Shown here piece after piece: positions 25,592-64,000 of a stretch of 64,000 nucleotides of DNA (the stretch's first letter is position 1; each line of letters starts with the position of its first letter). The notes beneath the pieces were generated by a model. It did not search any database, was not told the origin of the DNA, and saw only the letters and a list, made by a program, of their open reading frames with translations. A program made the translations under genes and the position numbers. This DNA is from a virus. The stretch spans positions 1-64,000 of the IMG/VR virus record IMGVR_UViG_3300008113_000084. The stretch is one strand, 5' to 3'.

Positions 25592-25667
25592 TGTTCCTTT
25601 CTATGGTATGCCCTGAACTAATATAACCGTTTTATTGTAAACGGAAACCTGTGTTTCTCTGATAGCT

Positions 25668-25708
25668 AAAAAAAAGCCCCACAGACTAGCCCGAAGGCTA
25701 TCTGTGGG
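25668..25708 (-). terminator. Rho-independent terminator
   Basis: CCCACAGA-TAGCC stem with TTCG loop, followed by T8 on the minus strand. Confidence 0.85.
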
Positions 25709-25714
25709 ACTGTG

Positions 25715-26566
25715 TCACGCTGTAACGGAATCCCCAAAGCTGAGGACTCCATAAGGCGTGATGGCATCTAGGCCCGCCGTCAGGACAGGCTTGCGCTGGG
25801 GACGAGCGCAAGCCTTGACCTCCAGGACGTAGCCGCCATGGTTGGGGCTCATCCTGAAGTCTTCTGGGATGAGTTGCAGGGGAACTTCCCCCGCACTCAT
25901 CAAGCCGTCGATGTAATCCTCGACGAGCCTCTCGGCCTGGGACGAGGCCATGAGTTGCTCCCAGGTGTAGCTCACCTTGGGCAGCAGATCGGCGACGACG
26001 GTGCCTTGCTGCACCACGACGCCGATCTTCAGCCAGGGCTTGAGCCTGGCTGTGGGAGGGAGGGACATGACCGGACCCTCCCTGAAGCCGACAAGGGTCT
26101 CAACCTCGTCGGCTATGATTTCCTCGACCTGCCCCGTCAGGGGGGCCTTGGAGCTCGGGGCCGGTACCCCGAAGTTGACTCGGCTCAGGATAAAGTCCTG
26201 AACCGCTGGATCGTCGAACTCCACGTGGAGTTCGGGTGTGACCCGTGCCACCAGCTGTGGCATCGGGGCTGGGTAGGCCTTGTCGGCAGACCTACCCACT
26301 TCGCCCATGAGGGCGACAAGACGGGCCGTGCGCCCGTCCTCGGCCCTGCCGCCGAGGCGGGAGGGCCTTTGCCAGCTGCTGGACGGGCAGCGCAGAACGC
26401 GCTTCGTCCACAGCTGGCCCGTGCGCTGGGAGTGGTGGATTTTGTAACCCTCAACCACCCCAGCGTGGTCGAGGGTCATCATCATCCCCTCGTCGAGGGG
26501 AAAGGTCCCTTCATCGAAGGGACGGGCGTGGGTCGGCACCCACGCCATGACTTTGGGAGCGCTCAT
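25715..26566 (-). CDS. Hypothetical high-GC protein, possible barrel-sandwich hybrid motif
   Basis: GGAGG SD; 283 aa; APLTGQVEEII...LKIGVVVQQGTVVAD segment. Confidence 0.7.
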   Translation of the reverse strand: MSAPKVMAWVPTHARPFDEGTFPLDEGMMMTLDHAGVVEGYKIHHSQRTGQLWTKRVLRCPSSSWQRPSRLGGRAEDGRTARLVALMGEVGRSADKAYPAPMPQLVARVTPELHVEFDDPAVQDFILSRVNFGVPAPSSKAPLTGQVEEIIADEVETLVGFREGPVMSLPPTARLKPWLKIGVVVQQGTVVADLLPKVSYTWEQLMASSQAERLVEDYIDGLMSAGEVPLQLIPEDFRMSPNHGGYVLEVKACARPQRKPVLTAGLDAITPYGVLSFGDSVTA

Positions 26567-37604: not shown

Positions 37605-37640
37605 GGCTTCTCCTGGTCAGAAAAACCAGAGGTGAATGAA

Positions 37641-37675
37641 GAAACGCTGTAACGCCAGAAGCGCTACAGCGTTTC
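37641..37675 (-). terminator. Terminator-like hairpin after recA
   Basis: GAAACGCTGTA/TACAGCGTTTC stem. Confidence 0.65.
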
Positions 37676-37691
37676 AAGTCAGCCAGCGTTG

Positions 37692-60422: not shown

Positions 60423-60631
60423 AACCTACTTCCTTTCTGGGACGTGTTTAAATTAGCGAAGATAGGGACATAAAACCGTATGCCCTATTTCCGAATACGT
60501 CAACTATCAAACAAACGCACCCAAAGCGGAACTGTTGAAGTTGTGACTTTATTATATTTTATTTTCAATAAAATATATTCTATTTTTTTCTTGCATTGCC
60601 TGGGTCCAGACAATGACAAAAAAAGGTCTAG

Positions 60632-60661
60632 TACACTCATCTTATTAATAAGATGAGTGTA
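60632..60661. repeat. Perfect 30-bp palindrome
   Basis: TACACTCATCTTATT|AATAAGATGAGTGTA. Confidence 0.95.
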
Positions 60662-60695
60662 TTAAACGCACAACCTCTACATCTCCGCCTGTGGG

Positions 60696-62536: not shown

Positions 62537-62996
62537 ACTTCCACCATTCTGGTATGTCCCTGTCTCGCCACGCTGCCATGCTGGCTTTGTCGTGTATGTA
62601 GTAGGCACGATAAGCGTCTACTGCGTCGTGGCACTTGTATTTGTCAGGCATCGCCTGAGCAAAGTCTGTAAAGCTGCTTTCAGGTATGTGCTTGGACAGC
62701 CTGAAGCATTGATTGATTATGTGGTAACACTTGTGGACTTTGCCGTACCTAAACCTGTACTCGTGGCACAGTTCTAGTCCCAGGTCAACCAACCATAGGA
62801 AGTTCTGACGTGTCTCCCTTGTCCATATTGAACATGGGTGGTTCTTGTGCGCTTGTTTGTACGGAGCGGTGCCGCCATGAAAAATAACGGCCGTACACAG
62901 CATCTGCGCTGATTCCAGGGGCATCTTGACCACGTGCTTGTCCAGGTGATACCTGGCGCACAGCTGCGTGTCCCTGTCCAGGATGAATATGTTCAT
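62496..62996 (-). CDS. Pyrimidine-dimer DNA glycosylase (DenV-like) family protein
   Basis: MNIFILD...DKHVVKMPLESAQML, HKNHPC, AQAMPD, AYRAYY. Confidence 0.8.
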   Translation of the reverse strand: MNIFILDRDTQLCARYHLDKHVVKMPLESAQMLCTAVIFHGGTAPYKQAHKNHPCSIWTRETRQNFLWLVDLGLELCHEYRFRYGKVHKCYHIINQCFRLSKHIPESSFTDFAQAMPDKYKCHDAVDAYRAYYIHDKASMAAWRDRDIPEWWKYERSIQHDIEVAY

Positions 62997-63199
62997 TCAA
63001 CATCGTCTTCAGACTCTTCCAGTAGCTCTTCCCTAAAGATTGCCACCTTTTCTGACGCGTTGAACCGAAGAGAAACTTTTCTCGGGTCGATCCAGGTCAC
63101 GGTTATCCATATCTTTTCGTCTCCTATCATAAGCATTACTTTCTGGCCAGGTTTGCGAGTAAGAACCAGTCCTGGCTTTGCTTCGTCTTCTTCGTCCAT
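62993..63199 (-). CDS. csrA: Second CsrA homologue with acidic termini
   Basis: LVLTRKPGQKV...VSLRFNASEKVAIFREEL; GGAGG SD. Confidence 0.85.
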   Translation of the reverse strand: MDEEDEAKPGLVLTRKPGQKVMLMIGDEKIWITVTWIDPRKVSLRFNASEKVAIFREELLEESEDDVE

Positions 63200-63256
63200 G
63201 TTTTCCTCCGCAAGTTTTGCGGAGCTTGCGTCACTATTCTCCGCATTTTGGCTGCG

Positions 63257-63457
63257 TTAGTTACCCGACCTTTCGTTTAACACTTCCATGACTATGTCGA
63301 TAAGCACGTCAGTGAACCCTTCGTTGTAATAGTCCATCAACCTATCAACAATTCTTTTGAACTCGTCGTCACTGATGTTGGAAGGTTTGATCTCTATTAG
63401 CTCCAAGTCCTCGTCTGATACGAACAGAAATGGAGTGCCTTTTCTGTCAATTTCCAA
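63257..63457 (-). CDS. Small acidic hypothetical protein
   Basis: TTG start 6 nt after AAGGAG, downstream of a terminator. Confidence 0.6.
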   Translation of the reverse strand: MEIDRKGTPFLFVSDEDLELIEIKPSNISDDEFKRIVDRLMDYYNEGFTDVLIDIVMEVLNERSGN

Positions 63458-63474
63458 TACCGTCTCCTTGTGTG

Positions 63475-63508
63475 AAAAACCCCACCCAGCCGAGAAGGCT
63501 GGGTGGGG
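63475..63508 (-). terminator. Strong rho-independent terminator
   Basis: 12-bp GC stem CCCCACCCAGCC/GGCTGGGTGGGG plus T5. Confidence 0.9.
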
Positions 63509-63515
63509 GTGGCGT

Positions 63516-63690
63516 CCTGTGTGTTGCAAGGGCATCACCCACGATCCTTGGGTGATTTTGGTGGCTTGGCTCGACACCTTGCGGCAGAGCCAGTCGTTGG
63601 GTACGAAAAGTTTACCCCCTACCCTTGCAAGAGCTATTGACCATGTAACCAGCTCTCCACACAGGTGATCGTCTCCAGGCTGGGCCTGGT
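63516..63690 (-). ncRNA. Multi-branched structured RNA of unknown class
   Basis: Six nested helices plus a 5' hairpin readable directly; intergenic; ends at a strong terminator. Confidence 0.65.
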
Positions 63691-63693
63691 GTT

Positions 63694-63999
63694 TTACAGA
63701 GCTTTGAACGGATAAGCTACTCCACTCATCATCAGCTTTTTGCCGTCCCTGCTAGTTCTCAGTGTAGTTGAAGACTGTTTCCGCTTCTTCAAAAATCTAG
63801 CCAGAAACGCAGTGTGGATCAAGAACCTGGTTTCGTTTTTCTTGAGAAGGACGTAATTTTTGCTGGCGTTTACAACCCAACCTTTGCTGTTCTGGTTGTA
63901 CTTTACGACGTCCAGGTGCTCTGGGTTTATTCCCTCAGACTCTTTGACCCTTTGCTTTTCAGCCAGTTTTTCCAGCCTGGTCTTTCGGTTTTTGGTGTC
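63694..63999 (-). CDS. Basic hypothetical protein, 3' part (start beyond window)
   Basis: 101 open codons from the edge to TAA at 63694. Confidence 0.7.
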   Translation of the reverse strand, partial: DTKNRKTRLEKLAEKQRVKESEGINPEHLDVVKYNQNSKGWVVNASKNYVLLKKNETRFLIHTAFLARFLKKRKQSSTTLRTSRDGKKLMMSGVAYPFKAL

Positions 64000-64000
64000 A

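Follow-up and report, generated by a model that had tools for sequence, protein, structure and literature searches.

Between two genes of a freshwater phage lies a structured RNA element of about 215 bases, with a csrA gene a short way downstream, and the question that this locus raises is what the element does and whether it belongs to any RNA class already described. The window analysed here is the first 64 kb (64,000 nucleotides) of an 89,381-bp IMG/VR virus record, IMGVR_UViG_3300008113_000084. The estimated completeness of this record is 43%, which implies a jumbo phage, and the closest relatives with retrievable genomes measure 190-221 kb. The sequencing runs tied to the record are lake and freshwater metagenomes from 11 studies, and sampled sequence words are present in 20 DNA runs, again from 11 studies; none of the runs listed is an RNA run. 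Nearly all genes of the phage are carried on the minus strand.

The element is followed by a gene for a 66-aa acidic protein and then by csrA. The original prediction had placed the RNA two genes upstream of csrA; only one gene, that of the 66-aa protein, actually lies between them. The product of the csrA gene falls into the PHROG family 'CsrA-like regulator' and, in an alignment of its full length to solved CsrA/RsmE chains, retains the segments LTR(K/R) and REE(L/I). Judged by these matches, the second gene downstream of the RNA is a CsrA homologue, though a divergent one, and it is one of two CsrA paralogues encoded by the phage.

The extent of the non-coding region hinges on where the 66-aa gene begins. 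We assign its start to the TTG at 63457, as all homologues begin with M[EQ]IDRK and an AAGGAG lies 6 nt upstream; with the start fixed there, positions 63458-63693 are non-coding. The protein is one of a family of phage proteins, 60-80 aa long, that has 27 cluster representatives at E ≤ 0.001 and a conserved core of DEDLELIG.DP...D..F..IV..L..YYN..F..VL. No Pfam or PHROG family matched it, its predicted structure has a low pLDDT of 61, and its matches in the protein atlas are only viral clusters without names. One source names a member of the family YciU/UPF0263, a name for which Pfam gave no confirmation.

As listed in Table 1, the element spans 63689-63475 on the minus strand and consists of a 5' hairpin, a 150-nt domain and an intrinsic terminator. 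Every helix of the original prediction was found on the minus strand where it had been placed, the 12-bp terminator included. The 5' hairpin P0 begins 4 nt past the stop codon of the 226-aa gene. Within the core domain, a three-way junction joins P1, P1a and P2 through linkers of 0, 0 and 2 nt, and P2 opens into a four-way junction with H1, H2 and H3, where the linkers are 3, 6, 10 and 0 nt long. When the RNA was folded in a 276-nt context, the pairs of P1, P2, H2, H3 and the terminator mostly reached probabilities of about 0.9-1.0, with weaker pairs at helix ends (0.46 for a G.U pair of P1a and 0.66 for the end pair of H3); H1 is the least certain helix, at 0.55-0.7.

The terminator hairpin alone reaches -28.4 kcal/mol, and the Shine-Dalgarno sequence of the 66-aa gene begins 5 nt past its U tract. 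No sigma-70-like promoter was found within 62900-64000. With a terminator followed by a Shine-Dalgarno sequence and no local promoter, the downstream genes would depend on read-through. The spacing of stop codon, terminator and Shine-Dalgarno sequence further suggests that transcripts which terminate end in this RNA, and that those which read through have it as their leader.

Table 1. Positions of the genes, helices, motif copies and other strong folds discussed in the text; positions with the prefix G000:C1 lie beyond the window.
Feature	Position	Strand	Details
tRNA-Met gene	64447-64375 (G000:C1:64375-64447)	minus	ARAGORN; upstream of the 226-aa gene; anticodon CAT; one of four tRNA genes beyond the window
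tRNA gene	G000:C1:68516-68590	minus	anticodon TAT
tRNA gene	G000:C1:68627-68700	minus	anticodon TCT
tRNA gene	G000:C1:69416-69487	minus	anticodon TGT
226-aa gene	stop TAA 63696-63694	minus	upstream of the element
66-aa acidic protein gene	63257..63457	minus	TTG start 63457-63455
csrA homologue, 68 aa	62993..63199	minus	Pfam CsrA E 2.2e-11; same direction, after the 66-aa gene
166-aa protein gene			phrog_624/endonuclease-V-like family; after csrA in minus-strand order
P0, 5' hairpin	63675..63689	minus	CCAGGC-CCA-GCCUGG, 6 bp; pair probabilities 0.98-1.0
Core domain, 150 nt	63516..63665	minus	three-way and four-way junction; MFE -64.0 kcal/mol
P1	63665-63658 with 63523-63516	minus	CCUGUGUG/CACACAGG, 8 bp, closes the core
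P1a	63657-63650 with 63636-63629	minus	GAGAGCUG/UAGCUCUU, 8 bp including 2 G.U; 13-nt loop GUUACAUGGUCAA
P2	63628-63621 with 63533-63526	minus	(U)UGCAAGGG/CCCUUGCA(A), 8 bp
H1	63617-63613 with 63603-63599	minus	GGGUA/UACCC, 9-nt loop
H2	63567..63592	minus	UGGCUC..GCC-GCAA-GGU..GAGCCA; 6 bp + 3 bp, asymmetric internal loop; GCAA tetraloop at 63582-63579
H3	63534..63556	minus	AUCACCCA/UGGGUGAU, 8 bp; 7-nt loop AGGAUCG
Intrinsic terminator	63508-63480, then U5 63479-63475	minus	12-bp stem, 10 G-C pairs, loop UUCUC
Motif copy 1	63554-63545	minus	CACCCAAGGA; H3 loop; sole GGA in any hairpin loop
Motif copy 2	63515..63523	minus	CACACAGGA; P1 3' strand and linker to the terminator; both Gs paired in P1
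Motif copy 3	63474-63465	minus	CACACAAGGA; overlaps Shine-Dalgarno AAGGAG (63469-63464), 6 nt before the TTG start
Other intergenic fold	60423-60695 (window)		z -8.6
Other intergenic fold	G000:C1:85808-85981		z -8.2
Other intergenic fold	G000:C1:67683-67774		z -7.3
Other intergenic fold	G000:C1:71609-71847		z -5.5
Other intergenic fold	37605-37691 (window)		z -6.0

Two further observations concern the same stretch. An ORF of 16 codons (GUG..UAA, MWRAGYMVNSSCKGRG; 63612-63662, minus strand) starts 10 nt past a GGAG in the 5' linker and covers P1, P1a, P2 and the 5' strand of H1, with its start codon buried in P1. It is probably a chance ORF, though it would be the first one to consider for a mechanism of leader-peptide attenuation. 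P0 and the 3' strand of the terminator also form a 21-nt imperfect inverted repeat. As MITE-like ends or as a long-range helix this repeat is weak, since its complementarity is 76%, it lacks a target duplication and it occurs in a single copy.

We then compared the fold with two kinds of background. The core on the minus strand gave a z-score of -4.82, and none of 200 dinucleotide shuffles folded as well; for the 226 nt that include the terminator, the z-score against dinucleotide shuffles was -5.66. The plus strand of the core folds at -59.3 kcal/mol (z -3.76). Four G.U pairs become A.C mismatches on that strand, so the core fold slightly favours the transcribed one. Measured against the genome's own 150-nt minus-strand windows with correction for GC, the core lies at -2.4 SD, with 67 of 2975 windows scoring lower (top 2.3%), so that the shuffle z-scores overstate how exceptional its stability is. 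Among 22 intergenic gaps the region ranks sixth by z (-4.65) and second by energy per nucleotide, and its GC content of 0.57 is the joint highest, the GC of the element being about 10 points above that of its surroundings.

What sets this gap apart is the form of its fold. The other strongly folding gaps that we inspected are mostly single long hairpins or terminators, and those of Table 1 that were folded in detail (all except 60423-60695) are mostly long perfect hairpins or terminators closely preceding a Shine-Dalgarno sequence. Punctuation by a terminator and then a Shine-Dalgarno sequence is common in this phage. The compact nested domain with two junctions is particular to this gap, and a 391-nt region at about 80.8-81.2 kb is also complex. 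Unusually strong folding was also seen in very GC-rich windows (0.6-0.73) at 25600-26500 of the window, inside coding sequence of the ORF list.

The original prediction had called the RNA unclassified, and searches against known classes bear this out. Rfam 15 gave no match at gathering scores across the whole window. At E ≤ 10 the region returned only three chance matches (Antizyme_FSE, mir-1207 and mir-605), all on the plus strand at 63479-63562 and two of them on the terminator palindrome itself. ARAGORN detected neither a tRNA nor a tmRNA at 63475-63690, and a tRNA cloverleaf is also excluded by the linkers of 3/6/10/0 nt, by a GCAA tetraloop in the 'anticodon' arm and by AGGAUCG in place of a T-loop. 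A type III toxin-antitoxin locus of the ToxI kind was rejected, as there are no tandem repeats and the downstream 66-aa acidic protein has no family. For a retron msr-msd or a Y RNA, the partner gene (a reverse transcriptase or Ro60, TROVE) was not found in the 89-kb record, which, at about 43% completeness, does not prove its absence from the phage. The element is present in a single copy in the 89-kb record, which rules out a REP/MITE-type repeat. The fold thus belongs to no described RNA family.

Relatives offered little against which the fold could be compared. Contigs from four runs, each of a different study, carry the same DNA, with 0 differences over 801 bases, and thus offer no population variation. 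In protein records the 66-aa protein recurs at identities of 82-84% and 68% on other contigs, which measure about 6.6 to 137 kb. GenBank phages gave no match to the RNA region by blastn, and none to CsrA or to the 66-aa protein by tblastn; a tblastn search with the 166-aa protein found only matches below 60% identity. Searches for related loci by the 226-aa and 66-aa proteins and by an alignment (A1), in viral, metagenome and genome collections, found none. The nearest relative with readable DNA is a 192-kb genome (L004/G001) whose 166-aa protein is 73% identical. It keeps the order of upstream gene, terminator, csrA and 166-aa gene, with the RNA and the 66-aa gene both missing.

A covariance model, R1, was built from the single sequence. 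It gave no match in four near-complete related jumbo phages, in 80 loci with a homologue of the 166-aa protein, or in 4 loci that encode distant relatives of the 66-aa protein. Two of these four were read (L121 and L124), and they have a gene or a simple hairpin immediately upstream of the 66-aa homologue. Scans for the loop and junction pattern gave no match in viral contigs or in genome contigs, and one chance match, inside a coding region, in metagenome contigs. This comparison of relatives indicates that the RNA is confined to a narrow lineage and was gained or lost together with the 66-aa gene. We therefore present the element as a candidate: a real, strand-favoured, non-coding and unclassified multi-junction structure, as predicted from one sequence, that is followed by a genuine terminator.

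A lead to its role comes from a short motif. The minus strand of the 89-kb record contains the sequence CAC-N-CA(A)GGA 8 times, and three of the eight copies fall here within a span of 81 nt, where 0.02 would be expected in 236 nt; the motif was defined after viewing the sequence and partly overlaps a generic Shine-Dalgarno sequence. Despite this post hoc definition the clustering is hard to dismiss. Copies 1 and 3 are identical at 10 of 11 nt. GGA as such is not enriched, with 5 occurrences in 236 nt and about 4 expected by chance from a rough estimate of base composition. Only the GGAs of the H3 loop (CACCCAAGGA) and of the Shine-Dalgarno site (CACACAAGGAG) lie outside the modelled helices, and in the whole-region MFE structure the H3-loop GGA alone is fully unpaired. 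The CAGGACG in the 3' flank, to which the original prediction had drawn attention, is indeed present, but both of its Gs are paired in P1.

A CsrA dimer binds one GGA that a hairpin loop presents and reaches across to another that overlaps the Shine-Dalgarno sequence, and E. coli csrA is autoregulated in this manner. We tentatively propose, as a possible rather than a probable reading, that the RNA acts in cis, as a leader or intercistronic operator controlling the operon of the 66-aa gene and csrA, and is read by a CsrA-type protein. The RNA would be transcribed as a 3' continuation of the message of the 226-aa gene, with boundaries that we infer, and the 150-nt domain would fold co-transcriptionally into a very stable structure. 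The strong intrinsic terminator would stop most transcripts, and those that read through would carry the 66-aa gene, csrA and later genes. A CsrA-type dimer, which could be either phage CsrA paralogue or the CsrA of the host, may then bind the H3-loop and Shine-Dalgarno sites. Bound in this way, the protein would act as a translational repressor of the first gene and might also alter read-through or stability, giving feedback on an operon that itself encodes CsrA. P1a, H1 and H2 might serve as a scaffold or have a second function.

Besides the motif cluster and the neighbouring csrA, the operator reading is favoured by the strand-favoured structure itself, by the terminator and Shine-Dalgarno sequence in a stretch with no sigma-70-like promoter, by the relative L004, which also has a terminator immediately before its csrA Shine-Dalgarno sequence, and by the joint highest GC content among the 22 gaps. 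Several findings weigh against it. Motif copy 2 is partly buried in P1, and about 100 nt of the fold (P1a, H1 and H2) are left without an explanation. The spacing of a terminator and then a Shine-Dalgarno sequence recurs elsewhere in the genome and so need not be regulatory. L004 does without the RNA, and the distant 66-aa homologues have no such leader. Finally, the phage CsrA is divergent, and the RNA specificity assumed for it here is putative.

Two other places in the record showed features of a related kind. In the csrA leader itself (63200-63256, minus strand) a hairpin, CUCCGCAA-AAC-UUGCGGAG at 63224-63206, buries the csrA Shine-Dalgarno sequence; its CUCCGC could alternatively pair with a second GCGGAG that lies about 20 nt upstream, just past the stop codon of the 66-aa gene. 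This alternative pairing is a possible translational-coupling or CsrA-sensitive switch. In L004 there is only UUUUGCGGAGAAAAUAUG, immediately after a terminator. Far from the locus, at G000:C1:80830-81240, there is a strongly folding intergenic region of about 390 nt (z -4.2, GC 0.57) with CCACAAGGAA in a hairpin loop at about 81144, which has the same CACAAGGA core.

The site count bears directly on one alternative, a sponge of the CsrB/RsmZ type that would sequester CsrA. The GGA motifs lie beside a csrA gene, and one of them is presented by a hairpin loop in favourable CsrA-type surroundings. Sponge RNAs, however, carry many loop-presented sites, and here the 5 GGAs are about what is expected, with a single one in a hairpin loop; nor did the region match the CsrB, CsrC or Rsm families of Rfam at E ≤ 10. 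With one loop GGA and two GGAs outside helices the RNA is not a CsrB-like sponge. The site count largely refutes this reading, and we hold it to be extremely improbable. The CsrA-binding RNA that the original prediction had suggested is partly supported, by the motif cluster and the adjacent csrA homologue; the resemblance to CsrB is not. The same fold could instead belong to a stable trans-acting non-coding RNA, either processed from the 3' UTR of the transcript of the 226-aa gene and tRNA-Met or made as an independent sRNA, which might serve, for example, as a protein-binding scaffold or decoy. We regard this as rather unlikely. The element stands at the 3' end of a transcription unit with a strong terminator, and its helices are local, nested and very stable, in the manner of stable RNAs and not of switches. 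The same strand carries a tRNA gene about 680 nt upstream and three others beyond it, and the small stable RNAs at the end of the T4 tRNA cluster occupy a comparable position; the second long structured intergenic region also has a CACAAGGA loop. Yet no sigma-70-like promoter precedes the RNA, exact complements to its unpaired segments in the 89-kb record reach only 8-10 nt, which is the chance level, and it is a single-copy sequence for which no homologue was found. The gap might also have no specific function, being a spacer rich in hairpins, what is left of an insertion that carried in the 66-aa gene, or an element that acts at the level of DNA. The joint absence of the RNA and the 66-aa gene from L004 amid conserved flanking synteny fits this view, as do the core's place only among the top 2.3% of genome windows, the want of a homologue in any collection searched and the good folding of the plus strand (z -3.76). 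Six perfectly nested helices in 150 non-coding nucleotides, with P1, P2 and H3 of 8 bp each, make it unlikely nonetheless, and so do the GNRA tetraloop, the preference of the G.U pairs for the transcribed strand, a GC content that exceeds that of the surroundings by about 10 points and the single copy, which is not that of a REP/MITE-type repeat.

Readings that centre on the terminator fared less well. The original prediction had also offered a riboswitch-like attenuator, and one form of it would be a new class of small-molecule riboswitch in which the multi-junction core is the aptamer and controls the terminator. The arrangement is the right one, as an intrinsic terminator comes straight after the structured domain and is followed by a Shine-Dalgarno sequence and a gene. 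The best antiterminator pairing, between GGGUAGGGGGU (63624-63614) and ACCCCCACCC on the 5' strand of the terminator, has an energy of -20.6 kcal/mol, which is reached by 1.4% of natural windows in the genome but by 12.9% of dinucleotide shuffles of the core, and a fold forced into it is about 20 kcal/mol worse than the MFE. P1, moreover, consists of 8 perfect pairs stacked on further helices and is unusually stable for a ligand-dependent helix; the downstream gene encodes a small acidic protein rather than a metabolic or transport function; and searches with model R1 found no conservation across lineages. A small-molecule riboswitch is therefore quite improbable in our judgement, and the wider attenuator idea is weakly supported: its terminator and Shine-Dalgarno sequence are real, 13% of shuffles attain the antiterminator pairing, and P1 is unusually stable for a switching helix. 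An RNA-based processive antiterminator like HK022 put or Bacillus EAR, in which the nascent RNA binds the polymerase and carries it past the terminator, would account for a stable RNA 7 nt before a strong terminator and for co-directional genes that have no promoter of their own. The putRNA acts alone on RNA polymerase and comprises about 70 nt in two stem-loops downstream of an early promoter (PMC9378689). The RNA described here has 150 nt and two junctions, shows no sequence likeness to put and has no promoter that we could find, so that membership in the put class, which fits by position only, was rejected. L004, too, has a terminator before csrA yet no such RNA, and other sites in the genome with a terminator and then a Shine-Dalgarno sequence lack such a domain. 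We consider a put-like mechanism very improbable.

The operator reading thus remains our preferred one, and it bears on how phages use CsrA. Phages do encode CsrA homologues, and an RNA operator before a phage csrA operon, if true, would be, to our knowledge, the first handle on the circuit into which such a homologue is wired. That the 150-nt domain is the sensor, for a ligand or a protein, of a new class of phage regulatory RNA that gates polymerase into the csrA operon strikes us as unlikely. If it were, the phage would possess a self-contained post-transcriptional circuit made up of an RNA operator and two CsrA paralogues, with a second RNA with a CACAAGGA loop at about 81.1 kb. If relatives were to show covariation, the element would become a new class of structured RNA from abundant freshwater jumbo phages.

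Set beside named systems, the element shares parts with several. Like CsrB, RsmY and RsmZ it is structured, ends in a terminator, carries a CAGGA(N)G-like motif and is linked to CsrA, but it presents one GGA in a loop rather than many and matches none of these families. With HK022 putL/putR and Bacillus EAR it has in common a position as a cis-acting RNA ahead of terminators that require read-through, whereas its size, topology and sequence differ from the two stem-loops of about 70 nt in put (PMC9378689). Terminating riboswitches and attenuators show the same order of multi-junction domain, terminator, Shine-Dalgarno sequence and gene; our element, in contrast, matches no Rfam aptamer, has a very stable closing helix, and is intercistronic with no promoter in front. 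CsrA-repressed leaders such as those of E. coli glgC, cstA and csrA differ in that here the sites stand at the margin of a 150-nt multi-junction fold, on either side of an intrinsic terminator, the two accessible ones being separated by about 80 nt of sequence, and the putative binder is a divergent phage paralogue. As in those leaders, a GGA in an upstream loop is combined here with a GGA that overlaps the Shine-Dalgarno sequence, the two sites being close copies, and csrA lies in the same operon, which allows feedback.
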